From positions 32,001 through 96,000 of the IMG/VR virus record IMGVR_UViG_3300010429_001883: a stretch of DNA of 64,000 bases, one strand, 5' to 3'. Position numbers and translations under genes: made by a program. The notes beneath the pieces are model-generated. The model made no database searches. It was not told the DNA's origin and was given only the letters and a program-made list of their open reading frames with translations. The stretch comes from a virus. Lineage: Duplodnaviria; Caudoviricetes. Shown here in pieces: positions 1 through 31,745 of this stretch (position 1 is its first letter; each line of letters opens with the position of its first letter).

Positions 1-1
1 A

Positions 2-928
2 AACTCTTTCGGCCCCTGCCGTGAACATGGTGAGGAACTGCCGATCAGTGAAACAGGCACCGCGATGGTCCACGATACCTCCCACGATCAGCAGGCTGAC
101 CGACGGCAGCCAGTCGGTCTTGAAGTTGACCTCGTGGTAAACGATGTCAACACCAGGACCAAGGCGCCAAGAGACACGAGCATTGCCCTTGACAATGCCT
201 CTGCCCTTAAACACAATTCTCACACACTTGAGAATTGTGCCTTCGGGGAGAGGCTGGACTCCCCGAGCGCGCCAATTAGATCCATATAGCAGGCGCATAA
301 TGTACTCGCCTGATACATGAATACACCCGTCATGGGCAGCCTTAAGGCTGGCTTCGAGAACGTCGTCAATTTCGACGCCCTCAGAAGCCGTAACCTCTCG
401 CTGCCCCTCGTCGGTGAGCACCGCGTACCGAAGGCTTTCCGACTGCCAGTCGACAGCCAGAACGCCGCCCAGTAAGGCGCTCATCCGAGCGAAGACGGTG
501 CCCATGATGGCTTTCATGGGCTTGTCTGATGTAGGCATGCCCCACATGGACATGCCCTTGACCACTCCGTCAGCCCAATCGGGGTGGACATAGAACGTCC
601 ACTTGGACTGTCGGATGACGCACCACAGGGTCGTGGGCTTACGGAGCTCACCACGAAGAAGGGTTACCGCCTTCTTTCGCAGCCACGCCTTTCGGGTGCG
701 GACGACAGAAGCATCGACGTCCCAAGACTCAATTCTGAGCTTGGAAGCATCGAGCTTCTTTGATTCGAGGAAGCCCAAGAGGACGGCAAATCGGCCCGTC
801 TCCTGGGATTCCTCACGCTCAACGTTGAGGTACCGGCCTTCCTCAACCGAAACAGTCACTTTCGTTTTAGGAAAGCGGCTGTTGTTGAGGAGTGTCCCCA
901 ACTTTCGCATGGCTTTCAGTACAGCCAT
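2..928 (-). CDS. N-terminal ~309 aa of a putative YonO/QDE-1-like single-subunit two-barrel RNA polymerase (runs off window edge)
   Basis: Translated by hand because it is absent from the ORF track (no stop in window). ATG at 928-926 with RBS AAGGAGGAG; frame open to base 2. Motifs in order: FARMS, HDGCIHVS, R..KGRGIVKG, DIVYHEVNFK, TDRQFL, matching the AR / DG..IS / R..KG / I...K / NRQ order of the RdRP/YonO family. Confidence 0.65.
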   Translation of the reverse strand, partial: MAVLKAMRKLGTLLNNSRFPKTKVTVSVEEGRYLNVEREESQETGRFAVLLGFLESKKLDASKLRIESWDVDASVVRTRKAWLRKKAVTLLRGELRKPTTLWCVIRQSKWTFYVHPDWADGVVKGMSMWGMPTSDKPMKAIMGTVFARMSALLGGVLAVDWQSESLRYAVLTDEGQREVTASEGVEIDDVLEASLKAAHDGCIHVSGEYIMRLLYGSNWRARGVQPLPEGTILKCVRIVFKGRGIVKGNARVSWRLGPGVDIVYHEVNFKTDWLPSVSLLIVGGIVDHRGACFTDRQFLTMFTAGAERV

Positions 929-938
929 GGCTCCTCCT

Positions 939-1280
939 TTATTCCCAAGGAGGGAGATCGGTGGCCGGACATTCGGTGTCCGGCTCTCGCCCTCCAGAAG
1001 GAATCGGCTCTGTGGGGATTAGCCACGACTTGGCCGCAGCCAAGGAGCTAAATCCCCGGAAATTGGCACCCGACAGGTTCTGAGTGAACCCGTAGGCGCC
1101 TTTCTGGCCATACCATCCCTCGATGATAAGGCCTTCCGGGTACAAGAAGACGGACTTGCCGATGTCCGCCTTCGTGTAGCGGGATTTGATCCGCTCTCGG
1201 ATCTCCTCCCGGTTCTTTTCGGAGATCTTAATGGAGAAGAAGCGGAAACGCTCCTTCACCTTATAATAAGGTGCTGCCAT
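939..1280 (-). CDS. Protein with RNase H1 N-terminal hybrid-binding (Cauli_VI/viroplasmin-like) domain
   Basis: GGAGG RBS. C-terminal half GLIIEGW..AYGFTQNLSGANFRGFSSLAAAKSWL resembles the GIY..W......GYSGA.YK.F.....A..FL pattern. Confidence 0.55.
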   Translation of the reverse strand: MAAPYYKVKERFRFFSIKISEKNREEIRERIKSRYTKADIGKSVFLYPEGLIIEGWYGQKGAYGFTQNLSGANFRGFSSLAAAKSWLIPTEPIPSGGREPDTECPATDLPPWE

Positions 1281-1289
1281 CTTGGCCTC

Positions 1290-1382
1290 CTAGTGCTTGC
1301 GGAGATAGCGAGCGGTGGCCTCGCAGATCTCCACAAGAACCCAAAAAATGAGGATAGCGAACACTGGCCAAAAGTAGGCCAT
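1290..1382 (-). CDS. Small single-TM protein (30 aa)
   Basis: MAYFWPVFAILIFWVLVEICEATARYLRKH; TAATG coupling to upstream gene and GAGGAG RBS. Confidence 0.55.
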   Translation of the reverse strand: MAYFWPVFAILIFWVLVEICEATARYLRKH

Positions 1383-1528
1383 TAGCTGTTCTCCTCGATG
1401 TGCTCGAGGACAGTCATCGCAACGGTGACTGCCCCGAACAAGATGACCACCGCGCCCACTGCGTATGCAATGAGCAACGGTGGGTACAAAATACAAGATT
1501 GGAGCAGCTGCTCCAATCCCAACGCCAT
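1382..1528 (-). CDS. Small membrane protein (48 aa)
   Basis: Hand-translated MALGLEQLLQSCILYPPLLIAYAVGAVVILFGAVTVAMTVLEHIEENS; TAATG coupling and CAGGAGG RBS. Confidence 0.55.
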   Translation of the reverse strand: MALGLEQLLQSCILYPPLLIAYAVGAVVILFGAVTVAMTVLEHIEENS

Positions 1529-2418
1529 TACGCCACCTCCTGGAGGAGGACGCCCAGCCGGGCGAGCTGGACGTCCACCACCGCCTGAGCCCTTGCGAGG
1601 CTCAGGTCGGTGGCCTCCATACGGGCCTTCTGGGCCCGGAGTTGGGCGGCGCCGGAGTGGATCGCCGCCAGGATCGCCGCGTTGTCCTTCAACGCGGCGA
1701 TAAACTCCGGATGCCTTGCTGTGGCATCCAGAGCGGCGACGACGTCCGCCGCGGCGAGGCGGCGGGAGGCTTCAAGCCCCCGGAGCCGAAGCTCCAGGGA
1801 CTTGATCCGCCGGGCAGTTTCCCGGCGGCGGACAGCAAGCCCTGCCCATTCCTGGGCGAGGGCCACCTGGCGGAGGCGCATCCGCCAGATGTTGAGGGCC
1901 TTCTCGGCCTTGGCCGCGTCGGGCCGCGTCCAGGCCGAGCCGCTCCCCCACTGCTTGGGGGAGCGGGTCTTGGTCTCCACCGGCTTGCGCCAGCGAAGAA
2001 GCCGGGCCTTGCGGGCCGCAGCCCGCTTGGCCCGACGTTCCTCCAGCCGCGGGTGCTGGAGTGCCTGCTCCAGCGCCGCAGCCTCTTCGCGCCGTTGGCG
2101 GCGGCGCGAAGCTTTGGAGGAATGGCCCTCCAAGCGGGTCAGCACCCGCTTGGAGGGGTTGGCCGAACACATTCGGGCCTGCGCCTCAGAAGCGAGGCGG
2201 GCAGCCCGAAGCTGCTTGGACGCGACAGCCCGGCGGAGCCGAGCTGTCCGGATAGCCTGGGCGCAGGGGCCGGCGCCCACGGTGGCGCCCCGGAAGGCGC
2301 CCAGGATGGTCCGCCCCTTGGGCGGGCGAACCATCCCCTCCTGGGCCAGCAGGGCCAGCCCGATCAGGGCCAGCGCCTGAAGGCCCATGAGGACGGTCAG
2401 GACGAGGATGATGCTCAT
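1528..2418 (-). CDS. Membrane-anchored Ala/Arg-rich coiled-coil protein
   Basis: AAGGAGG RBS, N-terminal hydrophobic helix, coupled to the next gene. Confidence 0.65.
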   Translation of the reverse strand: MSIILVLTVLMGLQALALIGLALLAQEGMVRPPKGRTILGAFRGATVGAGPCAQAIRTARLRRAVASKQLRAARLASEAQARMCSANPSKRVLTRLEGHSSKASRRRQRREEAAALEQALQHPRLEERRAKRAAARKARLLRWRKPVETKTRSPKQWGSGSAWTRPDAAKAEKALNIWRMRLRQVALAQEWAGLAVRRRETARRIKSLELRLRGLEASRRLAAADVVAALDATARHPEFIAALKDNAAILAAIHSGAAQLRAQKARMEATDLSLARAQAVVDVQLARLGVLLQEVA

Positions 2419-2420
2419 TA

Positions 2421-2482
2421 GAGCACCTCCTTGTTGTTGCGTTTAAGCTAGCTGTATGTCGCTAGCGGGCACGTCGTAGCCC
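2421..2482 (-). promoter_or_regulatory. Structured 5' leader, copy 1 (two hairpins + TTAAACGCAA + RBS)
   Basis: Near-identical to 3359-3415; stem 2 is GCTAGC/GCTAGC. Confidence 0.7.
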
Positions 2483-2596
2483 ATATGTCAACCCATGGGT
2501 GTAAGCGTCAATACCGCCGCTACCATGGGGTACTACTACAGATAGCCCTGTAGCACAGCCGCTCCTCTTTTACGTCTTTGGAGTCGCGCTCGGACT

Positions 2597-2652
2597 GGGG
2601 CATGACACTCCATGCCCCTGTAAAAGATCATACTCCCATGAGTGTATGGGAG
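2597..2652 (-). ncRNA. Two hairpins with mutually complementary 6-nt loops (kissing-loop candidate)
   Basis: + strand GGGGCATG-ACACTC-CATGCCCC and CTCCCAT-GAGTGT-ATGGGAG. Confidence 0.6.
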
Positions 2653-2667
2653 GGAACGTTACTTTGA

Positions 2668-2835
2668 CTACTTGGTGGTCATGGTCTCGGCGGCCGCCAC
2701 CAACACCACCCGGTCGGCGGCCGACATGGCCGCCAGGTAGCGGCGCATGAACGCCACAGCCTGGGCCGTGGCGCTCACCTTCTGCTCCACCGTTGTCAAG
2801 GCCGCAGCCTTGACATTCGTCTTCTTCTCGGTCAT
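2668..2835 (-). CDS. Hypothetical protein (55 aa)
   Basis: ATG at 2835 with TGGAGG RBS (MTEKKTNVKAAAL...). Confidence 0.6.
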   Translation of the reverse strand: MTEKKTNVKAAALTTVEQKVSATAQAVAFMRRYLAAMSAADRVVLVAAAETMTTK

Positions 2836-2991
2836 GGTATCTATCCTCCACTGGGCGGGGCGTGCCGTTGCAGAGAGCCCCTTTAACCCATACTTAACCC
2901 CATAATCCATATTATGAGGTTGAGTATGAGTGCCCGATATTTATTATCGCCTCGGAGCAGGGCGATATCTTACATCCCCTTAGATCGGGGC

Positions 2992-3357
2992 TTAGTTGGT
3001 CTGGGTAGCCACCTCAATGTGGGTGAACTCTCGGCGGGGGGCATACACCGCCTGAAGGGAGAACAGCATGTCGATTGCCTCTTCCCGGTAAGAGGCTCGG
3101 GTTGACTTGAAGAGGTGGTTGTCGATCATAAGATTAACAACCCAATACCCGGAGTTCAGTTCTCTGATGTAGCCGGAACAGAGCCCGTTCCGGCCATCAT
3201 ATTTAAAGCTGCGGGTGGTGGTGGTCATGTCCTTGACCACACGTGGGGTGGCGGGGACGGCCTTGGCGTTGGCCTTGGCCTTGGCGTCGAGGGCGGCGGC
3301 GATCACGATGATGCCGATGATCACGACGATTCCGATCACGATGGCGATGATGCTCAT
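2992..3357 (-). CDS. Membrane-anchored hypothetical protein
   Basis: GAGGAGG RBS; N-terminal Ile/Val-rich TM helix; starts MSII like 1528-2418. Confidence 0.7.
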   Translation of the reverse strand: MSIIAIVIGIVVIIGIIVIAAALDAKAKANAKAVPATPRVVKDMTTTTRSFKYDGRNGLCSGYIRELNSGYWVVNLMIDNHLFKSTRASYREEAIDMLFSLQAVYAPRREFTHIEVATQTN

Positions 3358-3358
3358 A

Positions 3359-3415
3359 GAGCACCTCCTCTTTTTGCGTTTAAGCTACCTTAAGGTAGCG
3401 GGCACGTCGTAGCCC
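3359..3415 (-). promoter_or_regulatory. Structured 5' leader, copy 2
   Basis: Repeat of 2421-2482; stem 2 is GCTACC/GGTAGC (compensatory change). Confidence 0.7.
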
Positions 3416-4030
3416 TTTAAACCACATTAAAGCACATTAACATTACTGCTAATGTACTTTAAAATGGGGAGGGGACTACCTACCCATAGCCCATGGTATG
3501 TACCTTGTGGTACTCATGGAGCTAGGACTATGGCATAGGCAGTCCCCTCTAGTGGAGGGAGATACCAACCCACTAGCTGTCACCTAGTGAGTTGATATGG
3601 ATTTATGCTACTACTTGCACCGTAGCATCTGGTGCGTGTCAGTAGCCAGGGACTACACACTAGTGACCACTATTTGTGGTATAGTGCGCTGTTGGGCAAC
3701 TCGGGTATAAGGCAATATGCCTACCCTTGGCCCATCCTGGGTAACCAACACATGTATTGTCGTACTAGCACACTGGTATGCTAGAGTACCTGGTATTCTC
3801 CTTCAAAGGAGATAACAGAATAGGTACTTTACGGTATGTCCACCATCTTATGGACATAGCCCTACTGTTTGATGTAGGACATCATCTGTGTGGGAATAAG
3901 CCACACTCTTCTCTCGCTTTTCTAGATAAAGCAAGGCAAACTGTTGATGGGGTGATTGCCAATGGAGATGGCCCATCAACCGACGGGGTGGCATTGAAAC
4001 GAATTGCTTCGTCACAACACCACTACTAGG
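3416..4030 (-). ncRNA. Putative ~600-nt highly structured non-coding RNA or leader
   Basis: More than ten inverted repeats back to back; stem mismatches become G-U pairs on the minus strand; no credible ORF. Confidence 0.6.
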
Positions 4031-4213
4031 TAACCTCTAAAAAATATAAGTCCTTTTTTCCCTATATAAGGCTTTTTCCTTTTTTTCTAATTTCCTTTTT
4101 TCCTTTTAACCTTACACCTTCCTTAAAATAATTTTAAGTATTGTGATTTTTCTTGTTTATTTCTAGGTAAAGTTAGTGTATAATAGAGATAAGTCTAAAG
4201 AAGGAGAAAGCAG

Positions 4214-4429
4214 ATGTTTAATGATAGGTTTAAATGGTTAGTGATTGAGGAGGACGGGTGGGGTGACAGAACAAGTGGGGCTTGTTTCAAGAATAAGAGG
4301 GATGCAATTAAGAGGCTAAAGGAAATTAATTTAATGAATGGGTACACAGGGAAGTGTGCGGGTGCTCAATTATACAAGTTAGAACTGGTTGATACGAGTG
4401 ATGTTAATTGCATTTTGGAGGACAACTAA
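4214..4429 (+). CDS. Hypothetical protein
   Basis: AAGGAG RBS; TATAAT at 4179-4184 upstream. Confidence 0.65.
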   Translation: MFNDRFKWLVIEEDGWGDRTSGACFKNKRDAIKRLKEINLMNGYTGKCAGAQLYKLELVDTSDVNCILEDN

Positions 4430-5557: not shown

Positions 5558-5959
5558 ATGGCCAATTACATATTGATTGAAATACCTGAGACAGATGAGA
5601 ATGGGGATGACATAGATCTTTATCAATTGGATAAGATAGTCTTCATGATAAAGACTAGTTTAGATCCAGTAAGTGTACGGAACGTATTAAGTGTAGCGTA
5701 CAGGAAGATAAATGATTCAGTTCAAGGCGAGTTATGGTATAATGAATGGTTAGGTTCTCACAGTGATTGTAGTAAGGTAATTGAGGCCATGGGGTACTTA
5801 GGTGAATCTGTAGGTAAGAAGTTAGTGGATACTTATAAAGCAATGAATGAAAGTCAGTTAGTTAATTTAGAAGAGTTTTTAGAGGAGTACAAGAACAGTC
5901 CTGATTTAACGGACATAGTGATGAAGAAGGATGACAAGAGGGAAGAGGATGGTTACTAA
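5558..5959 (+). CDS. Hypothetical acidic protein
   Basis: CAGGAG RBS. Confidence 0.65.
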   Translation: MANYILIEIPETDENGDDIDLYQLDKIVFMIKTSLDPVSVRNVLSVAYRKINDSVQGELWYNEWLGSHSDCSKVIEAMGYLGESVGKKLVDTYKAMNESQLVNLEEFLEEYKNSPDLTDIVMKKDDKREEDGY

Positions 5960-6581
5960 GCCATTTACTATAAGTTTTGACATTGATGGTGTCTGGTGTG
6001 ATTTTGTTTTTGGGTTTACCAAGATAGCTCAAGAACTGGGTATGATAACCCACGTTAACAAAGTTCAAGAACAAAAATACTGGTCATTTAAAGATTCTCA
6101 TGGTTTAACTGATAAGGAACATGAGAGGTTAGTTGAGAGGTTAGAGGAATTAGGGGACAGGTTTTGGGTTAGCATCCCGCCGGTTAATGGGATTACTCCT
6201 TGGGAAACGTATAAGAGCTTGAATAGGAGATCGGATACTAGAATAGTCTTTATTACTTCCAGGCGGTTTTGTACCCTTGGTGGGATTCAAGAGTGGTTCA
6301 AGCAATACGGGCAGATAGACATAAAGAAAGAACAGATTTATATGGTTACTAATAATGACAAAAGGTCGGCGGCCATGCAGGCAGAAGTAGATATACATAT
6401 CGACGATAGCCCCGAGGCGCTGGAACTGTTACTCGATAAACCCTACCCTAAACAAGTAGTCGGGATAAAGTATAAGTATAACGAACATCTGTGGGCAGAT
6501 AAACGTATTATGTGGGTTGATTCTTTAATTGATTATTTATTGCTTTGCCAACAAACCTTACGAAAAGAATATGCGTATTAG
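5949..6581 (+). CDS. HAD-superfamily 5'(3')-deoxyribonucleotidase-like protein
   Basis: Motif I FDIDGV, motif II FITSR, motif IV IHIDDSP. Confidence 0.8.
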   Translation: MVTKPFTISFDIDGVWCDFVFGFTKIAQELGMITHVNKVQEQKYWSFKDSHGLTDKEHERLVERLEELGDRFWVSIPPVNGITPWETYKSLNRRSDTRIVFITSRRFCTLGGIQEWFKQYGQIDIKKEQIYMVTNNDKRSAAMQAEVDIHIDDSPEALELLLDKPYPKQVVGIKYKYNEHLWADKRIMWVDSLIDYLLLCQQTLRKEYAY

Positions 6582-6589
6582 GAGAGAAC

Positions 6590-7111
6590 ATGACTAAAAT
6601 TAATGAAAACCCTCCAACTATTTATCTGTCTGGTGCTATTGAAAACTTGAAGAATTTTGGTTCTGATTGGAGATTGGAAGCTGAAAAAAAGTTGAGATCT
6701 TTAGGATTTGAGACTGTAAACCCCGTTGACCTGGTTGATGACTTTTCTCGTATCACTGGGTTTGAAAGAAAGGATATTCCAACTTTAAAGAAAAAGAACC
6801 CAGCCAAGTTGGCTCAAGGGTTTAAAGAAATAATTAAACGAGATTTAGAGGCAGTTTCTTATAGTGATTATATACTAGTGTACTGGGATAAAGCCGCAGC
6901 TGAAGGGGCTGGTACCCACGGCGAAGCAACCTATGCATTTTCTCTTGGAATACCAGTTTACTTGGTTGCTAAAATTAAACCTGAACATGTCCCCGTATGG
7001 TTGCTTGGCTGCTGTGAAGGTGTTTTTGAAAGTTTGGTAGATGCGCTAAGCTTCTTTAGAGAAATTGCGCAACAAAGAGGATTAAGATTAAGGATACCCG
7101 ATGTAGATTAA
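6590..7111 (+). CDS. Nucleoside 2-deoxyribosyltransferase / nucleotide N-hydrolase-like protein
   Basis: IYLSGAI, RDLEAV..SD, GTHGEATYA..GIPV motifs. Confidence 0.75.
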   Translation: MTKINENPPTIYLSGAIENLKNFGSDWRLEAEKKLRSLGFETVNPVDLVDDFSRITGFERKDIPTLKKKNPAKLAQGFKEIIKRDLEAVSYSDYILVYWDKAAAEGAGTHGEATYAFSLGIPVYLVAKIKPEHVPVWLLGCCEGVFESLVDALSFFREIAQQRGLRLRIPDVD

Positions 7112-7130
7112 TTAGCGGAGGTAACTAGTT

Positions 7131-7304
7131 ATGACCGAACTTAAAAATATGAAAAAAGATGATTTAAAGAAACTTATCGGCAAACTGGAATACCTCCGTC
7201 GAGTGGCTACTAAGCAAGGTAAAAAAGAAAAAGAAGATGACTATACCCGCTATCTTATCTACTTGAGGAAATTATATCGTATGAAGATGAAGGAAGAACT
7301 TTAA
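7131..7304 (+). CDS. Small basic hypothetical protein (57 aa)
   Basis: GGAGG RBS, hand-translated MTELKNMKKDDL..., TAATG coupling to the next gene. Confidence 0.55.
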   Translation: MTELKNMKKDDLKKLIGKLEYLRRVATKQGKKEKEDDYTRYLIYLRKLYRMKMKEEL

Positions 7305-7906
7305 TGGAGCCATTCATACCACAGGGAGAACGTGCTCTCGTTGCTAGATATGTTAGGGGACTTATTAGAAGAGTCCCCTATACTTTATATGTTGAACCTA
7401 GAATAGGGGATGGCATGTTTGCTTATGGGGTATATCCTCATAATGCAATATTAAATGACGTTGGTACCGGCGCCGCTAATGCACTGAGAGTTATCAAAAA
7501 TAATATCTCAGCTTTCTTTAATACGGTAGAAGAATTAAGAAAAGAACCAATTAATCAAAACTATATAGATCATGTAAAACGAGCAGTTACTTATTGCGCT
7601 AATAAAAATAACTACGCTTTCATTGATGAAAACTTCTATAACTTGGTTGAATTGTCTCAATACTTGAATGATAATAATGTATTAATAAATAGCGGCGATA
7701 ACATAGAAGGTTGCTTGAGTAATGTAGAAAGAAAAAATCTGGTTGTTATTAGCAATCCAGATCTTGATGAAAACTTACTTGAAATGTTAGAAGCTACTAA
7801 AGCGTATTATATATTGATTTTGACTAATTCCTCTGATGAAAGCATTCCACTTATATCATCTGGCCTAGAAGAAACATCTTCTAGGTGTCTTAAGAATTTC
7901 CGCTAA
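7304..7906 (+). CDS. Degenerate Dam/D12-class DNA adenine methyltransferase-like protein
   Basis: YVEPRIGDG and AILNDV resemble YVEPFxGGG / AILNDIN; no DPPY motif (ISNPDL at the expected place). Confidence 0.5.
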   Translation: MEPFIPQGERALVARYVRGLIRRVPYTLYVEPRIGDGMFAYGVYPHNAILNDVGTGAANALRVIKNNISAFFNTVEELRKEPINQNYIDHVKRAVTYCANKNNYAFIDENFYNLVELSQYLNDNNVLINSGDNIEGCLSNVERKNLVVISNPDLDENLLEMLEATKAYYILILTNSSDESIPLISSGLEETSSRCLKNFR

Positions 7907-8837
7907 GTTTTAACAGTTCTTCGGTTTCTTGGGCTATTGTTTCTAGTGATGTCCAATGGGGCTTGTCAAAGTGTGACGAGCCTTGTAACACAGTAGGAAC
8001 ATAGTTTGTTTTCTGCCCAGTTGCCGTTGGGAAAGCGTCGTCGGTGAACTCGTATTTCAGCCCATAGTTCGTTTTAAAATATTCCAGTAAAGAGTATTTA
8101 TTTACTGGGGCTTTACTGCCTACTTCTAGTGCTCCGTTACTGCCAGCCATTATGCAACTAACAATAGCACAGAATAAATCTTCAGGATGAATGTAGTCTC
8201 TAACTATATCAATTTTATTGGTATAAAATATTTTATTTTGTAAAACAGCTTGAACAAGATCTGAAATAAAATACCCATCATAGATATCAGCGTATCTGCT
8301 AAAGTAGGAGTATAGCCGTATGTCTGTAATGTGCAAGTGCCTAAGAGCCCGGTGCTTGGCTTCCGATGTGAGTTTGGAAATTGTATTGTAAGTGTTTACG
8401 TTATATGGATCAATAGAGCCTGCAACTATGTGGGATAGCTGTCCGGTACTAAAACTAATATAGGAAGCTTTTGGGTTATACTCACGCAGATAGTCTATAC
8501 ACAAATTATCATATTTTTCAGTAATTGTGAAGTAGCGGCTAAAGTCGTTGTTTAGTTTCTTGAATGTTCCAGCGCCCGTGCAGTTAATCAATGCATTGTA
8601 TTTTCCAGAATTAAATTCATCGTATGTTAGGATTTTATGGTTGTTTTTAAAAGTTCTTATAAATTTTTCAACTTCTTGTGGATGAGTAGAACATAGAGTT
8701 AAGGAAACTTCTTCTGGATATGCAATGGAAAAGTTTCTAATCAGTCCTTTTGCTATGTGGGATGTTGCGCCCAATATTACTATATTGATTCCAGGACACG
8801 TATTCATAGATAATTGATTCCTCTTTTTTGTAACCAA
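7890..8837 (-). CDS. NAD-dependent epimerase/reductase (extended SDR)
   Basis: ILGATSHIA Rossmann motif, INCTG, YNTISK. Confidence 0.8.
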   Translation of the reverse strand: MVTKKRNQLSMNTCPGINIVILGATSHIAKGLIRNFSIAYPEEVSLTLCSTHPQEVEKFIRTFKNNHKILTYDEFNSGKYNALINCTGAGTFKKLNNDFSRYFTITEKYDNLCIDYLREYNPKASYISFSTGQLSHIVAGSIDPYNVNTYNTISKLTSEAKHRALRHLHITDIRLYSYFSRYADIYDGYFISDLVQAVLQNKIFYTNKIDIVRDYIHPEDLFCAIVSCIMAGSNGALEVGSKAPVNKYSLLEYFKTNYGLKYEFTDDAFPTATGQKTNYVPTVLQGSSHFDKPHWTSLETIAQETEELLKLSGNS

Positions 8838-23969: not shown

Positions 23970-24319
23970 TGGATTTTCTATTACAATCAGATATTGCCGG
24001 TACTTTTGATTCTTACAGACGTATATTTGATTATGGTCTGGCGGGATTTCTGGTTCTTTTTTATGTGTTTAAAATTGTTAGAATGGGTGATGAACATAGA
24101 CAGGAATTATTAAAAGTAAGAAAATCAATACTTTTACGTATTGCTAGAATAGAGTCAGCAATGGTCCTATTATCTTCATTGTTACAGATGAGACCCTGTA
24201 TGTTTGAGAAGCGTATAGAAATCGAGAGTACGTTTAAGCACATGTTGACACCAGAAGAGTTTGATGATTTGGACCTTGTGAAAGAAAAAGAGAGGAAAAC
24301 AAACGATGAGCAATATTGA
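23969..24319 (+). CDS. Single-TM protein, possible holin
   Basis: N-terminal TM (YGLAGFLVLFYVF) with a charged tail. Confidence 0.4.
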   Translation: MDFLLQSDIAGTFDSYRRIFDYGLAGFLVLFYVFKIVRMGDEHRQELLKVRKSILLRIARIESAMVLLSSLLQMRPCMFEKRIEIESTFKHMLTPEEFDDLDLVKEKERKTNDEQY

Positions 24320-24902
24320 AATGCTGCTAACTATTGCTATTATTGGGCTTTTAATTTATGAATTTTTTCACAAAAGGTCTGCTAAAATTCAGTTTAAAGA
24401 AGATATGGACAAAATGGACAACAGTATCTCTAAATTTAACAAATTTGTAGACACTGTTGCTTTTCATGAAATTGGTTTTGGTATTGGAGAAGTTTATAAA
24501 GATTCACAACACCACGACCACTCCAACGGCAAACTAAAAATAAGTTTTAAAGAAAAAAATGTTGATGTTTTAGTGGTACATTCTTCCAAAGAGAATGGTT
24601 ATGGAATATATAAAATATTTGCTGACAGTGGGTTTTCTACTAAGTGTGTAAGTTGGGATAAAAATGCCGCTATTATTTGGGTTTTAAAGGGTAAAGCAAC
24701 TTTTAAAATTTTTGATGATTCAGAAAAACTTACATCTTTAAGCACTCTTGATCCTGGAGACTATATTAATTTGGCTCCAGGCACTAAACATACTATGGAA
24801 GTTGATAGTAATACAGCGATGTTGGCTATTTTTATACCGCCGCTGTGTGCTACTGTTGATGATATAAAACGAATGCGAGAGGAAATAGGGTTTGAGGTAT
24901 AG
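24306..24902 (+). CDS. Membrane-anchored cupin-fold protein
   Basis: N-terminal TM; IWVLKG..LDPGDYINLAPGTKH..MLAIFIPP. Confidence 0.65.
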   Translation: MSNIEMLLTIAIIGLLIYEFFHKRSAKIQFKEDMDKMDNSISKFNKFVDTVAFHEIGFGIGEVYKDSQHHDHSNGKLKISFKEKNVDVLVVHSSKENGYGIYKIFADSGFSTKCVSWDKNAAIIWVLKGKATFKIFDDSEKLTSLSTLDPGDYINLAPGTKHTMEVDSNTAMLAIFIPPLCATVDDIKRMREEIGFEV

Positions 24903-27900
24903 ACGAAGGGGAGAAGAATTCATCTTTGATTACGGGGAGGCCTTCCCCGAAAATCCAAAGATATTTACTTTTTTTATTCGTACAGATCTGATCGAAAGTG
25001 AAGATGTACAGATACCTCTTTTTTTCTATAATGGCAAGAAATGGATACCAATTGCCGGTAACGACGCGTTTTCTGTCGAAGCAGAAACAAGTCGTGACTA
25101 TAATATTAAACCAATAACTAGAGATCAGATCGGTAGAAATAGTTTAATTTTTCCTGATCAGTCAACTTCAAAAAATCCCCCCAGTGCAAAACAAGTACAA
25201 GATGCAATAGAAAAGGTAAAAGATTTTCTTGGATCTTCTCCTTTGGCCCAAAGTTTAATAGATAAGTTAAGAACAGGTCCCACAAGTACAGGTGTTTCTA
25301 GCAGTTCGGATGATTTTTCAAACGATGGCAAATTTGTACCAAGAGCTGCAGAACAAACAGCTGCCGAAGCAGAAGAAAGTATAGATACTTCTGGAGCAGC
25401 GCAGTTTGATTCTGAAGGCAATTTTATACCGAGACCCGTAAATCCTGATTTTGATGCTTATCGTTTTAATGGGGTCAGTACAACTCCATATGAACAATGC
25501 GGATTAGTAGAGTCTGGTAGTTTATGTCCAGAGATAGAGTATGTTGTTGTTGAAACCTATAAGGATGATCCAAGAATTCCATACGATTGTTATAGGGTTA
25601 GTTGGTCTATACCTGACGTAAAAGTATGGTCTTACTATGTCGAAGGGATTGATGTTAGTAAAGATTTTCCTAGTGAGGGCAATCGTTACGACCTTTTTGA
25701 GTCTGGAAGTGGCTTACTTTCCTCGGACGGAAACTGGTTAACTCTCCCTGTTGAATTAACAGGCGGATCTTATGCTAACAAGTCTATAGAAATTTTTGAC
25801 AATAACAGTAGCTGTAAGATAATAAGAACAATTAAACAAAATACTTCAACAGCAATTGCATTTGAGGCTAAGGTTGATTGGCCGCAAGACACATATACAT
25901 TTGAAATTGTTGAACCGTCACACCTTTTTGTTGATTTTTCTAAAACAGTACCGGTAACAAATGACAATAGCTATGAGAATATTAGTCAAAGGTCTGGTTA
26001 TTTTGGTGTATTGATCAGATATAATTGGCGTGATTTAAAGTTTAGGGTTCGTGCAACTAACTGGGCTGGAACAGGCGAGTATTCTATTGGTGTTTATAAT
26101 GATTTTCCTGGCGTTCCTATAGACAATAAAATTCGTATAGATACTGAAAATTCTTACGGTGATTATGTTACTGTTTCATTAGATGATGATAGAAATCCTG
26201 TTTTTCTTGTTTTTGATGGAGACGACTCTTTAATAGAAGTTATTCCTATAACTGGCGGTTTCGGAGAATCTGGTTATTCTGGTTACTCTGGGTACAGCGG
26301 CAAGTCTGGCTATTCTGGTTATAGCGGAATATCTGGATATTCCGGAAAAAGTGGTTATTCAGGATACTCGGGAGTTTCCGGGTATTCTGGGTATTCTGGT
26401 TATTCTGGAATAAGCGGATATTCTGGCTCGGGGGTTTCTGGATATTCGGGTTCTGGAGTGTCTGGATACAGTGGCTATTCTGGAACTAGTGGTTATTCTG
26501 GGATTTCAGGATATTCTGGTATAAGTGGTTATAGCGGAATATCTGGTTTTAGTGGAATATCTGGGTACTCTGGATCTGGAATATCTGGATATTCAGGAAC
26601 TTCTGGTTACAGTGGCTTTAGTGGTTTATCTGGGTATTCAGGTATTTCGGGGTATTCTGGAAATAGTGGATATTCAGGTTCATCGGGATATTCCGGATAC
26701 AGCGGCACGTCTGGTTACTCCGGGTTAAGTGGTTATTCAGGTATTTCCGGATATTCTGGTTCAGGGACATCAGGATATTCTGGCTACAGTGGCGTTTCTG
26801 GATATTCTGGGATATCGGGTTATTCTGGTAATTCAGGATTCAGTGGATACTCAGGCACAAGCGGATATTCAGGTACAAGCGGATATTCTGGCTATTCTGG
26901 TAGTGGTGTTTCTGGTTATAGCGGCTACTCGGGAATTAGTGGATATTCAGGATCAGGAGTAAGCGGATATTCAGGGTATTCTGGCATAAGTGGGTATTCT
27001 GGTTCAGGAGTTTCGGGGTATAGCGGATCTGGAGTATCTGGTTATTCTGGTTATTCTGGAATTTCTGGCTATTCGGGATCTGGAATTAGTGGATATAGTG
27101 GTATTGGGACATCAGGATATTCTGGGTATAGCGGTATCTCGGGGTATTCAGGCTTTAGTGGAATCTCAGGTTATTCTGGGATTTCAGGATACTCTGGGTC
27201 TGGGGTAAGCGGCTATTCTGGCTCTGGAATTTCTGGGTACAGTGGTTCAGGTATTTCAGGATATTCTGGATATTCTGGTTCAGGAATCAGTGGGTATTCT
27301 GGAATTTCTGGCTACTCTGGCTACAGCGGCATATCTGGATACAGCGGGTACTCAGGACCTTCAGGCTACTCCGGTTATAGCGGTACGTCAGGATATTCAG
27401 GCTACTCTGGTATTTCAGGTTATTCTGGTTACTCCGGATCAGGCGTTTCCGGCTATTCTGGTTATTCAGGCGCAAGCGGTTATTCAGGTTACTCTGGAAA
27501 ATCAGGCTACTCTGGCTATTCTGGATCTGGCATAAGTGGATACAGTGGTTATTCTGGTTCTGGGCTTTCTGGCTATTCAGGATATTCGGGTCAAGTAGGC
27601 CCCCCGGGTCCACAAGGGACCTCCGGATATAGCGGTTATTCAGGGGCCCAAGGTGAGGGTGGGGGTTCGTCCGAATTTTCTGTCCTTCAAACCGGTCACG
27701 GATTTTCTGTAGGAAATGTTTTAAAGCCCACCGAAACAGAAAATATTTACGCTTTGGCTCAAGCGGATTCTTATGAAAATGCGGATGCCGTGGGTATTGT
27801 TAGCGAAGTTGTTGGTCCGGACGAATTCAAGTTATTTACTGCCGGGGAGTTAACTACCGGAGTTCCGAATTTTCCAGCCGGATCTCCTGTATTTTTATCC

Positions 27901-28665
27901 GATGTTACCGCCGGATTGATGACGGATACCGAACCCGACACGGAACTTCATATTTCTAAAGTTCTGGGGTATATCATCGACCCCGAAGATAAAATGATTG
28001 TTCAGATCATGCGGGGGGTTGAACTAATTTATAATATCGGAACTTCCGGATATAGCGGGATTTCAGGATACAGCGGATATTCCGGGGGAGTTGGGGGAAC
28101 TGGTCCAGCCGGTACTTCTGGGTATAGCGGTTATTCTGGGGCGAGCGGAAGATCGGGTTATTCTGGTGCCAGCGGAATCTCAGGCTATTCTGGAATTTCT
28201 GGTTATTCAGGTTCCAGCGGTATTTCTGGGTATTCTGGAATTTCTGGTTATTCTGGGGCGAGTGGGAGATCTGGTTATTCGGGATACTCCGGTCTCGGGA
28301 TTTCGGGATATTCAGGTTATTCCGGGGCAATTGGGTCTAGATATAGATCATATACATGGGTAGTTTCTACTCCAGCTACCGGGGGTATTCCCGGTACTCG
28401 ATTGTATGCGGCTTCTACTGCCATTAGATTGAGTTCTTATGTGACTTCTGCTACTTCCGCTACTTTTAATATCGAGGAAAGAACTTCTCCCGATTCTTCA
28501 GGAACCAATCTTTTAGGTTCTGATCAAGTAGCTACTACTACGGGGGCTTCTACCACTTCGTTCTCTAATAGTTCTTTGGCGGCGGATTCATTTTTGTGGT
28601 TAGATATTTCTGCTATTAGTGGGAGCCCCGGATATCTTCAAGTTACGTTAGTTGTTAAGGAGTAG
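24892..28665 (+). CDS. Virion fibre-like protein with long (Gly-X-Ser)n collagen-like repeats
   Basis: SGYSGISGYSG repeats at ~26269-27645 and ~28039-28327, a GPPGPQG stretch, FN3-like FRVRATNWAGTGEYS, C-terminal beta domains. Confidence 0.75.
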   Translation: MRYRRRGEEFIFDYGEAFPENPKIFTFFIRTDLIESEDVQIPLFFYNGKKWIPIAGNDAFSVEAETSRDYNIKPITRDQIGRNSLIFPDQSTSKNPPSAKQVQDAIEKVKDFLGSSPLAQSLIDKLRTGPTSTGVSSSSDDFSNDGKFVPRAAEQTAAEAEESIDTSGAAQFDSEGNFIPRPVNPDFDAYRFNGVSTTPYEQCGLVESGSLCPEIEYVVVETYKDDPRIPYDCYRVSWSIPDVKVWSYYVEGIDVSKDFPSEGNRYDLFESGSGLLSSDGNWLTLPVELTGGSYANKSIEIFDNNSSCKIIRTIKQNTSTAIAFEAKVDWPQDTYTFEIVEPSHLFVDFSKTVPVTNDNSYENISQRSGYFGVLIRYNWRDLKFRVRATNWAGTGEYSIGVYNDFPGVPIDNKIRIDTENSYGDYVTVSLDDDRNPVFLVFDGDDSLIEVIPITGGFGESGYSGYSGYSGKSGYSGYSGISGYSGKSGYSGYSGVSGYSGYSGYSGISGYSGSGVSGYSGSGVSGYSGYSGTSGYSGISGYSGISGYSGISGFSGISGYSGSGISGYSGTSGYSGFSGLSGYSGISGYSGNSGYSGSSGYSGYSGTSGYSGLSGYSGISGYSGSGTSGYSGYSGVSGYSGISGYSGNSGFSGYSGTSGYSGTSGYSGYSGSGVSGYSGYSGISGYSGSGVSGYSGYSGISGYSGSGVSGYSGSGVSGYSGYSGISGYSGSGISGYSGIGTSGYSGYSGISGYSGFSGISGYSGISGYSGSGVSGYSGSGISGYSGSGISGYSGYSGSGISGYSGISGYSGYSGISGYSGYSGPSGYSGYSGTSGYSGYSGISGYSGYSGSGVSGYSGYSGASGYSGYSGKSGYSGYSGSGISGYSGYSGSGLSGYSGYSGQVGPPGPQGTSGYSGYSGAQGEGGGSSEFSVLQTGHGFSVGNVLKPTETENIYALAQADSYENADAVGIVSEVVGPDEFKLFTAGELTTGVPNFPAGSPVFLSDVTAGLMTDTEPDTELHISKVLGYIIDPEDKMIVQIMRGVELIYNIGTSGYSGISGYSGYSGGVGGTGPAGTSGYSGYSGASGRSGYSGASGISGYSGISGYSGSSGISGYSGISGYSGASGRSGYSGYSGLGISGYSGYSGAIGSRYRSYTWVVSTPATGGIPGTRLYAASTAIRLSSYVTSATSATFNIEERTSPDSSGTNLLGSDQVATTTGASTTSFSNSSLAADSFLWLDISAISGSPGYLQVTLVVKE
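26269..27645 (+). repeat. Coding 9-bp-period Gly-X-Ser repeat, block 1
   Basis: Directly visible; synonymous codons are highly varied. Confidence 0.95.
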
Positions 28666-28668
28666 ATC

Positions 28669-29406
28669 GTGGCGGTTGTTCAAGATTACGATACAATTCA
28701 AACCTCGGTTCTTAAATCTGGCGGGACAACTAGCGTTGAGTTTACGTTGGAAGTCGATGATTGGGATTATGTGGCGTTAATATACGCCCATAATAGTGGG
28801 TCGGCTTTAGATATTACTTGGCCAACTGGTTTAGGGTCTCAGGAAACTTTGTTTAGCGTAACTTCCGGTAATGGGTATCTTTTGGTGGGTAAAGGATTCC
28901 CTTGGAGAAATGGATATGGGAAAAGTTTAACAGCGGCTATCCCGGTACTTGGAGACATAGCGTGTGTTGCTTGTCTTCAAATATATCATTCTTCAGCATT
29001 TGATCAATCAACTACATTTACTGATGTTTGGCAATCTAATCCGGTTTCGACTTCTTCAGGAATAGATCCGACAACTGCCTATTCTCATATAGTAGTCGCC
29101 GCCGCTTATTATGGGGATACTGTAGCGTCTTTCTCTAGTCATGCAACGGCCACCCAACCCGGGGCGTTGACTGAACGGTGTGATATAAATGGATTAAAAA
29201 CCGGAACACCTAATAAAGCGGTCTCTTTATCGGTGGCTTCTGCCCAGTCTTCAAGTTCAGGTATTACTGGAGCGTATAGTTGTTCTCTTTCAGGAGCCAA
29301 TTATGTTGAGGGAGAGGAAGAGTACGATTATAGTTTGGCTTTGTTTAATATTACGAGTATAGCCAATTCAAATGTGAATAAAATGATTGCGATTCACGGT
29401 GGGTAG
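28669..29406 (+). CDS. Putative virion structural protein
   Basis: Ser/Thr/Ala-rich beta-type sequence between fibre genes. Confidence 0.55.
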   Translation: MAVVQDYDTIQTSVLKSGGTTSVEFTLEVDDWDYVALIYAHNSGSALDITWPTGLGSQETLFSVTSGNGYLLVGKGFPWRNGYGKSLTAAIPVLGDIACVACLQIYHSSAFDQSTTFTDVWQSNPVSTSSGIDPTTAYSHIVVAAAYYGDTVASFSSHATATQPGALTERCDINGLKTGTPNKAVSLSVASAQSSSSGITGAYSCSLSGANYVEGEEEYDYSLALFNITSIANSNVNKMIAIHGG

Positions 29407-29414
29407 GACATCTT

Positions 29415-30608
29415 ATGCCGACGGCTCATACAGCCATACGATTAGTTGGAAAATCCGGTTACTCCGGCTATTCGGGGGTTTCCGGGTATAGTGGGTATTC
29501 CGGAATTTCAGGCTATTCCGGTTACTCGGGGATTTCTGGATATTCCGGCTATTCGGGGGTTTCCGGTTATTCTGGATACTCCGGGATATCTGGGTATTCA
29601 GGAACTTCCGGAATTTCTGGCTATTCTGGAATATCAGGCTATTCTGGATACTCAGGATATTCAGGTCAAGATGGGGTGATTGGTGGGGATGGTGCCTCCG
29701 GCTATTCAGGATATTCGGGATATTCGGGATATTCGGGAATTTCCGGCTACTCCGGAATCTCGGGCTACTCGGGCATTTCCGGATACTCCGGGATATCTGG
29801 TTATAGTGGGATTTCTGGTTACTCAGGAATTTCAGGCTACAGCGGATCTGGAGTGAGTGGTTATTCTGGTAGCGGGATTAGTGGATACAGTGGCTACTCT
29901 GGAATTTCAGGTTATTCAGGTTCGGGAACAAGTGGATATAGTGGTGCTGGAACTTCAGGGTATTCAGGATATAGTGGTGGTGCCGGTGCAGCGTCAATGT
30001 GGGTCACGGTGCCGGGGTCTCCTTCAAGAACAGATGGGGATACTTTTACTATAGCTGACGTTGGTAACGCCGGACTTTATAATTATCTTTTACAGCGTGG
30101 GACTATTTTGAAATGGACGGATACCACAACTCATATGGCTTGTGTAGTGTCAGCTAGTTATGCGGGGGATGTGGTTACTGTAAACATAATGGGGGATACT
30201 CTCGATTCTTCTGCAACTATGAATACAATGCAGTATTTCTGCGGCGAGAAGGCCCGAGTAACTTCTTTTGCTTATGCTGGGACTGTCTATGTTGGAACGA
30301 ATATTATGGGTCAATATAATATGCCCATGCCAGCTAAAATATTTGGTGCTGACGGGTATCATGGAACGGCTGGGTCAAAAAACGCCACAACATATGATAT
30401 AAATAAAAACGGTTCAACTGTTTTTACAGCCAAAGTTTCTATTGCGTCGGGCCAGACTAAGGGAGAGGGCTATACAGCAAACGACAATACAACAGCAGCA
30501 GTAGGAGATTATTTCACCGTTGACTGTGATTCGGTAAGCACCACAAAACCTATTGACGCTTATATCAATTTGCTCTGGTGCCCACTGTATATTCAATATT
30601 TGACATAA
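29415..30608 (+). CDS. Second (Gly-X-Ser)n fibre protein
   Basis: Repeat at ~29452-29980 followed by a globular C-terminal region. Confidence 0.75.
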   Translation: MPTAHTAIRLVGKSGYSGYSGVSGYSGYSGISGYSGYSGISGYSGYSGVSGYSGYSGISGYSGTSGISGYSGISGYSGYSGYSGQDGVIGGDGASGYSGYSGYSGYSGISGYSGISGYSGISGYSGISGYSGISGYSGISGYSGSGVSGYSGSGISGYSGYSGISGYSGSGTSGYSGAGTSGYSGYSGGAGAASMWVTVPGSPSRTDGDTFTIADVGNAGLYNYLLQRGTILKWTDTTTHMACVVSASYAGDVVTVNIMGDTLDSSATMNTMQYFCGEKARVTSFAYAGTVYVGTNIMGQYNMPMPAKIFGADGYHGTAGSKNATTYDINKNGSTVFTAKVSIASGQTKGEGYTANDNTTAAVGDYFTVDCDSVSTTKPIDAYINLLWCPLYIQYLT

Positions 30609-30617
30609 GGTAATTAT

Positions 30618-31382
30618 ATGGCCTATCTTGGTGAGTATCATCTAAATTCAAATACATTGGCCTACTATAAGTTTGATAATAATTTGAATGATAGTAGTGG
30701 GGCTGGACTAACTTTATCAAACAGTGGGGCAGACTATTCTTTTGATAGGTTAAAAATAGGGTCGCATTCGTTGGTAGGGTCTGGAGCATATCTTTTTAGA
30801 AATGATACTTTTCTTTGGAGTATGCACACCAATCACACTTATGGTTTCTGGTTTAGTCCTGTAAAAGTCGATGCTACCAACGATTTGGAATTATTTTATT
30901 CGTCTGACGGGACATATTATAAAGGCGCAATCGCCATGATGATACAATACAGTTCGAAAATAATTGTTTGGCCAAGGATTTATCGATACGATTCTGGTTC
31001 TACTACATGGACAGATTCATCCGGAACACTAAGTTTAGCGGAAGGCAAGTGGTATTTTATTTTGTTACGATATCTTTGGTCGGTAAATTATTATTATTTG
31101 TATTTATATGTTTATCAAAACAAAACCGAAGTCGGTGCCGGGTCTCCCAAGGGACGTTGGGAATGGAACGTGGTTTCTGAGTATGTAAGAGTAGCTTCAT
31201 TCACGGGCAGTAGCACATCCCTAGCGGATTATTTTAGAATATTCCCGGCGTCGTATTCGGACCAATATTATGCTATAGATGAATTATTTATCGAATCCGG
31301 AGCTTGGGGAGCTTCTCCAGTTGATGAGTTTATTCCGTATTGGCAGCAAACTAGAGGAGTTAGAACACCTAGGTGTTCATAA
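30618..31382 (+). CDS. LamG/concanavalin-A-like lectin-fold virion protein
   Basis: AYYKFDNNLNDSSG, T.GFWF.P, GKWYFI, IDEL.I. Confidence 0.65.
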   Translation: MAYLGEYHLNSNTLAYYKFDNNLNDSSGAGLTLSNSGADYSFDRLKIGSHSLVGSGAYLFRNDTFLWSMHTNHTYGFWFSPVKVDATNDLELFYSSDGTYYKGAIAMMIQYSSKIIVWPRIYRYDSGSTTWTDSSGTLSLAEGKWYFILLRYLWSVNYYYLYLYVYQNKTEVGAGSPKGRWEWNVVSEYVRVASFTGSSTSLADYFRIFPASYSDQYYAIDELFIESGAWGASPVDEFIPYWQQTRGVRTPRCS

Positions 31383-31397
31383 ATATAGGAGGACGGT

Positions 31398-31661
31398 ATG
31401 TCAACACTAAATCAAATTTACGATTTTATTCGTAATACTAGAACTCAGACCAATGCTTTGATTGATGCAATTGAAGAATTGGATGCTCTTAAAGCGGAGT
31501 GGGATGCCGTGGATATGGGGAATCAGTTAGATGCCGAGCATTTTATTAGCAACGACACCGGTTTAGCTCCGGCCGATATTACCGCCGTGTTCACAACCCT
31601 TGCTGCTATAAAAGCACTGCTGGCGGAAGGCCATGCAACTAATTTGTATAAAGTGAAATAA
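31398..31661 (+). CDS. Hypothetical protein (possible fibre chaperone)
   Basis: AGGAGG RBS; small helical protein after the fibre module. Confidence 0.55.
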   Translation: MSTLNQIYDFIRNTRTQTNALIDAIEELDALKAEWDAVDMGNQLDAEHFISNDTGLAPADITAVFTTLAAIKALLAEGHATNLYKVK

Positions 31662-31745
31662 TCATATAAAATTTTCAGAAATTTGTTGCCCTTTTTAAGT
31701 TTTTATGCTATAGTTTTAATGAATACTTAAAGAGGGTTATTTTAT

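Follow-up and report, generated by a model that had tools for sequence, protein, structure and literature searches.

The window, which is the whole stretch of 64,000 nucleotides (nt) analyzed here and corresponds to bases 32001-96000 of a 148-kb IMG/VR virus record, contains two copies of a short leader element on its minus strand, at 2482-2407 (copy 1) and 3415-3347 (copy 2). Each copy is a 75-letter signal of an uncultured phage, in which three small hairpins are combined with a strong ribosome-binding site and with codons 1-3 of a gene. The two copies, hereafter type 1 leaders, precede genes for unrelated membrane proteins of 296 and 121 amino acids (aa), and a different (type 2) leader precedes the gene between them. 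All lie within a 12-kb block of leftward transcription with 55-63% GC (up to 73% in the 296-aa gene), whereas the genome has about 36% GC. This GC-rich block corresponds to genome positions 24000-36000, i.e., positions 1-4000 of the window and the 8 kb preceding it. A chimeric assembly was rejected, as the independent assembly L044 has the same sharp junction between GC-rich and AT-rich DNA; the block is therefore a genuine property of this group of phages. The coordinates of the leader parts and of the associated features are provided in Table 1.

The features that an earlier, sequence-only reading had reported for this locus were confirmed. Reading of the minus strand recovered both copies, the identity of hairpin 1 and of the linker UUAAACGCAA between them, and a second stem that differs by one G-C/C-G swap and carries another loop. 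Sequence and folding also confirmed a looser GGGGC...GCCCC hairpin ahead of the middle gene. The observation that both downstream proteins begin with MSII and a transmembrane (TM) helix and are otherwise unrelated was likewise borne out (BLASTP E = 0.44 between the 296- and 121-aa proteins). In addition, folding revealed a third hairpin that was absent from the earlier reading, GGUGCUC-UA(A)U-GAGCAUC, which includes the last bases of the Shine-Dalgarno (SD) sequence, the AUG, and codons 2-3. The "MSI" start common to both proteins is therefore part of the element.

Table 1. Positions of the leader parts, upstream modules, and genes. Positions refer to the window unless a contig is named; bp, base pairs; ORF, open reading frame.
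Feature	Position	Strand	Description
Copy 1, hairpin 1	2467-2482	-	GGGC-UACGACGU-GCCC; 4 bp, 8-nt loop, about -6.6 kcal/mol; same in all 21 copies
Copy 1, hairpin 2 (form A)	2447-2466	-	GCUAGC-GACAUACA-GCUAGC; -9.1 kcal/mol
Copy 1, linker and spacer	2431-2446	-	Invariant UUAAACGCAA (2446-2437) and variable A/C-rich CAACAA (2436-2431); predicted single-stranded
Copy 1, SD and hairpin 3	2410-2430	-	Extended SD GGAGGUG (2430-2424) overlapping GGUGCUC-UAAU-GAGCAUC (2427-2410); encloses AUG (2418-2416) and codons 2-3; about -9.4 kcal/mol
Copy 2, hairpin 1	3400-3415	-	Same sequence as copy 1 hairpin 1
Copy 2, hairpin 2 (form B)	3384-3399	-	GCUACC-UUAA-GGUAGC; -7.7 kcal/mol
Copy 2, linker and spacer	3369-3383	-	UUAAACGCAA (3383-3374) and AAAGA (3373-3369)
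Copy 2, SD and hairpin 3	3349-3368	-	SD GGAGGUG (3368-3362); GGUGCUC-UAU-GAGCAUC (3365-3349) enclosing AUG (3357-3355)
Type 2 leader, middle gene	2833-2881	-	GGGGC...GCCCC (2881-2857), GCCCAGU, SD GGAGG (2849-2845), ATG (2835-2833)
Module u1	2483-2522	-	Ends ...GGTTGACATAT directly before hairpin 1; similarity to most relatives stops here
Module u2	3416-3462	-	28% GC; long A-U hairpin; ends ...GUGGUUUAAA (also written ...GTGGTTTAAA) directly before hairpin 1
Module u3			...GTGTTAA(T/C)ATATA before hairpin 1
Module u4	2882-2930	-	33% GC; tandem TATGGGGTTAAG / TATGGGTTAAAG; ends ...TATGGGTTAAA; precedes the type 2 leader in the window
Leftward order	from ~4030	-	~600 nt without an ORF; copy 2 and 121-aa gene; type 2 leader and 55-aa gene; copy 1 and 296-aa gene; two small genes; 1117-aa gene
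121-aa gene	2992-3357	-	MSII start and TM helix; otherwise unrelated to the 296-aa protein
296-aa gene	1528-2418	-	MSII start, N-terminal TM helix, then Arg/Ala-rich part
1117-aa gene, 5' part	2-928	-	Operon of the leaders runs into this gene; probably a YonO/QDE-1-like two-barrel RNA polymerase
Regions of hairpin, U-tract, and motif	L044:8380-10700; L049:15900-19400; L064:16000-17500		Found in all three lineages

The blocks common to the two copies are, as RNA, GGGCUACGACGUGCCC (hairpin 1), GCUA...UAGC of stem 2, the linker, GGAGGUGCUCU, and AUGAGCAUCAUC, which read as DNA GGGCTACGACGTGCCC, GCTA, TAGC-TTAAACGCAA, GGAGGTGCTCT, and ATGAGCATCATC; AUGAGCAUC is identical in both copies as well. 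The copies differ only in the loop and one compensated pair of stem 2 (GCTAGC-GACATACA-GCTAGC in copy 1 and GCTACC-TTAA-GGTAGC in copy 2), in the A-rich spacer, and in one extra A, and these differences avoid all other stem pairs, the SD, the linker, and the loop of hairpin 1. Exactly two occurrences of the 16-mer of hairpin 1 were counted in the window, compared with 0.14 expected by chance even with three mismatches allowed, and the whole 148-kb record holds only these two copies of it and of the element. The two copies have fold z-scores of -4.9 and -3.3 relative to dinucleotide shuffles. Linker and spacer are predicted to form an unpaired A-rich stretch of 15-18 nt, after which the SD GGAGGUG stands 4-5 nt ahead of the AUG (6-7 nt when counted from its GGAGG core). 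The computed energy of the 7-9-nt duplex between this SD and the canonical anti-SD is about -17 kcal/mol, compared with -7.5 to -9.4 kcal/mol for hairpin 3.

Relatives of the 1117- and 296-aa proteins were found in assemblies from digesters, sludge, and wastewater, and the contigs concerned (L044-L063) carry the leader once or twice each. The sequence-only reading had made its proposal depend on further homologues, and these exist: a covariance model identified 21 leader copies in the window and 15 related contigs, representing 12 distinct haplotypes over positions -60 to +110 and nine over the 80-nt core. Hairpin 1 with its loop, the GCUA/UAGC of stem 2, the linker, GGAGGUGCUCU, and AUGAGCAU are invariant in all 21 copies, and about 53 positions never change across the haplotypes. 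Variation is found in stem 2, which has form A, B, or B' (loop UUAG); in the pre-SD spacer of 5-8 nt, which is always A/C-rich (e.g., CAACAA, AAAGA, AACAA, AAAAA, UACAA, AAAAAA, or CAAAA); in an optional A ahead of the AUG; and in one C/U position in the 3' arm of hairpin 3. Form A is also present at the orthologous site in L046, L052, L053, L062, and L063, and forms B and B' also occur at the copy 1 site in L044 and L054-L061. Several relatives have both copies, each of which keeps its own spacer type; the duplication is therefore older than the split of these relatives. The leader is a real, conserved, and clade-restricted cis element, and the comparison between copies within a genome is a better argument for constraint than the conservation among orthologues.

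Base pairing was counted on the alignment produced by a three-hairpin covariance model (17 pairs, nine distinct sequences). All 17 pairs are formed in all sequences, and 15 of them never vary. The single double-sided change, from C-G to G-C in stem 2, is one event and is accompanied by replacement of the whole loop. The single one-sided change, from G-C to G-U in hairpin 3 (ATC to ATT in the 3' arm), keeps the pairing, and hairpin 3 also contains an invariant G-U pair; these features fit a sense-strand RNA only. With 15 invariant pairs and one compensatory event among close relatives, the earlier suggestion that stem 2 indicates selection on structure is not well supported. By-eye pairing between the loop of hairpin 1 and downstream coding sequence was also considered and rejected, as the 6-nt match is found only in copy 2 of the window and is not kept in the relatives.

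Upstream of the leader, the similarity between the window and most relatives breaks off: identity is 75-100% as far as the 5' G of hairpin 1 and drops to about 25% exactly there. Four different upstream modules (u1-u4) abut this G. Modules u2 and u4 (28-33% GC) abut GC hairpins within a region of 60% GC. Although u4 precedes the type 2 leader in the window, it is joined directly to a type 1 leader in L054-L059; u2 is joined to a type 2 leader in L061, and in L056 u2 and the leader stand directly on a 299-aa gene, with the intervening genes gone. The type 2 leader itself has the form GGGGC...GCCCC or GGGGUG...CACCCC with a replaced interior (short or long), followed by GCCCAR-GGAGG, and heads at least three unrelated ORF families in the relatives. 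In total, the four modules occur in combination with both leader types and with no fewer than five ORF families. On the evidence of these junctions, the early region is composed of swappable units, each consisting of an AT-rich module, a GC hairpin leader with an SD, a small ORF, and two hairpins, that are exchanged at the leaders. Each gene of the operon is followed by terminator-like hairpins. The middle gene starts at the ATG at 2835 rather than at the start of its longest ORF, and two hairpins after this gene (2597-2652, minus strand) are CUCCCAU-ACACUC-AUGGGAG and GGGGCAUG-GAGUGU-CAUGCCCC; their 6-nt loops are exactly complementary, and both are kept in all relatives spanning the site. 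In two of the contigs (L054:351-1592 and L055:1-3446), a DDE_Tnp_1 transposase gene is located just upstream of the cassette region. L055 also has an N6 methylase gene, and the polymerase gene of L054 seems to be interrupted, with opposite-strand ORFs at 5913-8375. These two contigs may be defective or rearranged copies.

The Rfam scan that the sequence-only reading had called for provided no existing family for the leader. Rfam 15 had no match in the whole window at gathering thresholds, and at E <= 10 the region 2300-4100 had only chance matches far below threshold, none of them over the leaders. No ribozyme was matched at E <= 10 in 2300-4100, and the CUGAUGA...GAAA core is absent from the GC-rich island. 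In IMG/VR, the hairpin 1 16-mer has 39 matches, all of which were rejected as chance coding sequence (G-Y-D-V-P) without the rest of the element. A pattern of linker and SD had no match in IMG/VR or in GTDB genomes. A pattern from hairpin 1 to the linker had none in JGI metagenome contigs, although carriers among the JGI contigs were later reached through their proteins. Protein-based locus searches found nothing in IMG/VR and one short locus in a metagenome scan, and tblastn and megablast searches against cultured phages provided no match.

For transcription, a consensus scan of the minus strand found no sigma-70-like promoter upstream of either copy, and the nearest leftward sigma-70-like site is at 4159-4131. 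Readings of -35/-10 elements in u1-u4 were rejected, being inconsistent between modules and without support from the scan. Hairpins 1 and 2 are not followed by a U-tract; the sequences after them are GCUA and UUAAACGC, respectively. Contigs from four metatranscriptome libraries of different studies were placed on positions 1-4400; such contigs show neither 5' ends nor strand and may include DNA carry-over. One library covers 2233-2517, and parts of the stretch have no contig cover. Differences in unitig depth around 2437-2517, at about 3-4x, are too small to support an internal start there. Contigs from three studies cover 3530-4011 in the ORF-free region of about 600 nt at the operon head (3416-4030, minus strand), and two of them stop at 4004 and 4011. 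This region is nearly identical in four relatives (L044:330-1120, L052, L053, and L061); L061 is the more diverged of these, and some of its changes appear to be compensatory. The region resembles an abundant structured RNA or a long 5' leader.

At its other end, the operon runs into the gene for the 1117-aa protein, beyond which are a DprA-like gene and an SNF2 helicase gene. The 1117-aa protein has no Pfam or PHROG match, and a profile search of the PDB provided no match. A five-member alignment (A1) contains an invariant GG.DLDD motif, and over this region the relative P0004 has a weak match to PF05183 (RNA-dependent RNA polymerase (RdRP)/QDE-1; E = 0.048). Among 30 language-model (Atlas) neighbors, 21 are RdRP-bearing clusters, some of them viral. 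The AlphaFold2 model is too poor to use (predicted local distance difference test score of 37). These similarities suggest that the protein is probably a two-barrel RNA polymerase of the YonO-like type, which provides the context in which the leader is read here. A scan for PF00940 had no match in the record, and was uninformative given that control genomes were likewise unmatched. The 296-aa protein has no family match, and its orthologues are P0005-P0015. Across the record, start codons are often located inside short palindromes, e.g., AGCCATGGCT at the polymerase gene, ACCATGGT, GATCGTATGATC, and CCCTATGGG; start-codon hairpins may be a general habit of this phage.

Two more distant lineages, L049 and L064, contain no leader copy detectable by the covariance model. 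L049, whose polymerase shares only about 30% identity, carries GGTTGACCTATA joined to GGGCU, almost the same as u1 and the start of hairpin 1, upstream of the TM/Arg-rich gene that comes before its polymerase gene; a short hairpin of 4-6 bp with another sequence follows this motif. The leader of a 305-aa gene in L049 combines two hairpins and an A-rich stretch with GGAGGUG and a start-codon hairpin (UGCCC-CAU-GGGCA); the latter differs from UGCUC-UAU-GAGCA by a U-A to C-G change. These parallels with the window leader are suggestive only. The pre-early operon of L049 also has three intergenic motifs just upstream of gene leaders, at 6696-6752, 7247-7301, and 7684-7736 (plus strand). Two are type III hammerhead motifs with complete CUGAUGA/GAAA/GUC cores (42.4 and 40.6 bits; gathering threshold 48.5), and one is twister-P1-like (41 bits; gathering threshold 67); no counterpart of these motifs was found in the window. 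Probably, then, the 5' ends of cistrons in L049 are made by RNA self-cleavage, and these motifs make cistron-by-cistron formation of RNA 5' ends plausible in this phage group. In the three lineages represented by L044, L049, and L064, almost all intergenic regions beyond the polymerase gene contain a GC hairpin with a U-tract, immediately followed by a TTTTTCTCT(T/C)NNN(T/C)(A/G)TGA-like motif. These elements look like terminator-promoter units of another class than the leaders. A tRNA-like element is located at L044:9320-9470 (plus strand; counterpart near genome positions 27900-28050), with an 8-bp acceptor-like stem (GGCGUGUG...CACACGCCA), a perfect T-arm (GGGGG-UGUUCGAAUC-CCCCC), and about 100 nt in between. 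ARAGORN and Rfam called nothing at this element, and ARAGORN found no tRNA or tmRNA in L003, L044, or L049.

Taken together, these patterns are best explained by a portable 5'-untranslated leader and translation-start cassette that acts as sense-strand RNA in the first leftward (pre-early) operon, a reading to which we give a probability of about 0.5. The mRNA would have its 5' end at or just before the first G of hairpin 1. This end could arise in two ways: a phage polymerase might initiate at GGTT(A/G/T)A..., a short AT-rich motif that is found next to the hairpin in every case, or a long transcript might be cleaved within the AU-rich modules, a role apparently filled by ribozymes in L049. 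Hairpins 1 and 2, located at the 5' end, may shield the message from 5'-end-dependent decay, and the invariant linker and A-rich spacer would provide an unstructured landing site for the 30S subunit. Pairing of the SD with the ribosome would out-compete the AUG-hiding hairpin 3, which may set the efficiency of initiation and would fix Met-Ser-Ile as the protein start. With the same cassette on different genes, the copies may serve as crossover points for the swap, loss, and gain of genes. The proposal of a new cis-regulatory RNA thus survives in part: the element is a genuine conserved sense-strand cis element without a match in Rfam, and among the suggested roles, a stability or translation leader fits best and a put-like antiterminator fits poorly.

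Several observations weigh against the cassette. The covariation is one event within a close clade, and hairpin 1 is short (4 bp). Adjoining orthologous 5' coding DNA is 85-100% identical among the contigs and the relatives are only about 5-15% diverged; they are too similar, and invariance among orthologues is therefore weak evidence. The leader folds of L049 and L064 are no better than shuffles (z about -1.1), and the parallels in L049 may be over-read. Moreover, RNA-library contigs bridge both junctions between upstream module and leader (X18, 3374-3577; X16, 2437-2517), so that at least a portion of the RNA, or of carried-over DNA, extends across the leader instead of beginning there. The RNA-library contigs place the leader region in RNA libraries, and not solely at the starts of molecules. 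Finally, the invariant 8-nt loop and 10-nt linker are more readily explained if a protein or polymerase recognizes them than if the leader is a stabilizer through its structure only. Because a structural role leaves the invariance of loop and linker unexplained, readings as a promoter and as an operator both stay alive.

The first of these, which was not among the roles listed by the sequence-only reading and which we consider unlikely, is that the invariant block (hairpin 1, the stems of hairpin 2, and the linker), with or without GGTT(A/G/T)A, is a DNA-level promoter for a phage two-barrel RNA polymerase. The enzyme could be an injected virion polymerase or the 1117-aa protein, and the hairpins could be extruded as at N4 early promoters or be incidental palindromes. 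A promoter of this kind would be consistent with the lack of a sigma-70-like promoter upstream of either copy, with a block that is invariant including loop and linker while the upstream modules differ almost completely, and with the conservation of GGTTGAC(C)ATAT(A)GGGCU in L049 despite the divergence of the polymerase. There is also a precedent in the Thermus phage P23-45, in which the virion polymerase reads pre-early genes from its own AT-rich promoters (PMC10770324). However, the conserved block reaches past the SD and the AUG to include two codons, none of which a promoter would need; the G-U pairs of hairpin 3 fit sense-strand RNA only; RNA-library contigs cross the junctions; and two copies in 148 kb is a small number for a class of promoters specific to one polymerase, though the type 2 leader might represent another version of it. 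The N4-type hairpin promoter, which a T7-like virion RNA polymerase reads, has a stem of 5-7 bp and a 3-nt loop; the loops here have 4-8 nt. A broader version, in which the two-hairpin block is a recognition or loading signal for the phage's own two-barrel polymerase, either as a DNA hairpin promoter or as RNA acting on the enzyme, appears rather improbable.

Still more doubtful is a translational operator, in which an RNA-binding protein of the phage or host would recognize the hairpin 1 loop and linker and/or the start-codon hairpin and switch both genes together. Here the invariance of sequence, beyond structure, in the hairpin 1 loop, linker, and hairpin 3 would be expected, as would an AUG inside a hairpin (the 7 bp of hairpin 3, which holds the start codon and part of the SD, are 100% paired in the nine distinct sequences) and an element common to two unrelated genes, which would hence be co-regulated. 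Yet no candidate RNA-binding protein was identified in the operon, where most neighbors lack a family, and the extended SD would beat hairpin 3 without any factor. A duplicated gene start without dedicated function, copied by recombination and homogenized by exchange, with hairpins that are chance palindromes in GC-rich DNA, is quite improbable. The relatives are close, covariation is minimal, many start codons lie in short palindromes such as CCATGG, and gene conversion does occur, as shown by the exchange of the three forms of stem 2 (A, B, and B') between sites. Against this, the copy differences cluster in the loop and spacer and spare the SD and linker, the fold energies are 3-5 standard deviations better than those of shuffles, the same plan recurs with other sequence in L049, and both copies are kept in all relatives spanning the region. 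Lastly, a put-like processive antiterminator, in which the two nascent-RNA hairpins would bind the elongating polymerase for read-through of the terminator-like hairpins after each gene, is highly implausible: it would suit two adjacent stem-loops of about 45 nt in all and contigs that traverse intergenic regions, but the element is joined to the SD and start codon of individual genes instead of being placed once behind a promoter, the middle gene has a different leader, there is no sequence or Rfam similarity to any antiterminator RNA, and put acts on the host enzyme, which may not be the polymerase that transcribes this operon.

Among known systems, the cassette reading has one of its closest counterparts in leaders with a 5'-terminal stem-loop that confers stability or strong translation, as in T7 gene 10 (phi10), Escherichia coli ompA, Bacillus subtilis aprE, and SP82. 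These share with the present leader a GGG-starting hairpin after an AT-rich promoter-like motif, an A-rich unstructured stretch, and a very strong SD, which is here predicted to be optimally spaced behind that stretch, as in the phi10/aprE type. The present leader differs in having two hairpins and a third over the AUG, and in its invariant loop and linker, which are needless in simple stabilizers; its 5' end is a proposed one. The translational operator hairpins of the MS2/PP7 coat-replicase system and the targets of T4 gp43 and RegA similarly enclose the start codon, together with a portion of the ribosome-binding site, within a small, conserved hairpin that co-regulated genes have in common. 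In contrast to those, the hairpin here is weaker than the pairing between SD and anti-SD, and no cognate protein is known. The put element of HK022 also consists of two adjacent stem-loops in a phage early-transcript leader, with no similarity detected between the two. Each early promoter of HK022 is followed by a single put element, which is separate from any ribosome-binding site and acts on the host RNA polymerase.

To our knowledge, phages with single-chain two-barrel RNA polymerases have barely been studied, and we know of no account of how their first genes are expressed. The type 1 and type 2 leaders, which mark the gene starts of the first operon, may offer an entry point to how the programme of phages with YonO-like polymerases begins. 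In P23-45, the first-read genes include a second, non-virion two-barrel RNA polymerase, and a virion polymerase fused to the tape measure protein reads the pre-early genes (Chaban et al., 2024; PMC10770324). The pre-early units of that phage have their own short AT-rich promoters, described as DNA motifs defined from mapped transcription start sites, and unusual conserved terminator motifs (PMC10770324). As in P23-45, the first operon here holds a probable phage RNA polymerase gene; the two systems have no sequence similarity, and that study describes no hairpin leader or start-codon hairpin (PMC10770324). If the leader is a polymerase signal, it would be the first control signal to be defined, outside Thermus phages, for a two-barrel polymerase of the YonO-like or virion type. 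If it is only a stabilizer and ribosome-binding-site cassette, it would be a useful annotation and no surprise.

The PeSL cassettes of T4-type phages, which consist of a strong sigma-70-like promoter and a terminating stem-loop (Arbiol et al., 2010; PMC2839356), are also short repeated regulatory signals, located in an early region that is hyperplastic and full of small ORFs whose function is unknown. In both cases, recombination between copies explains the gain, loss, and replacement of genes between close relatives, and the leader copies mark such insertions, deletions, and replacements as PeSL copies do. For the other two of the three PeSL hallmarks, the leader departs from that model: no sigma-70-like promoter was found for it and its hairpins have no U-tract, and instead it carries a ribosome-binding site, a start codon, and the first codons. 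The leader thus has the look of an exchangeable cassette for gene starts and not of a novel type of RNA switch, and the early region of this phage evolves, as in T4-type phages, through the exchange of gene cassettes at regulatory repeats, although the repeat here brings a translation start in place of a host-type promoter.

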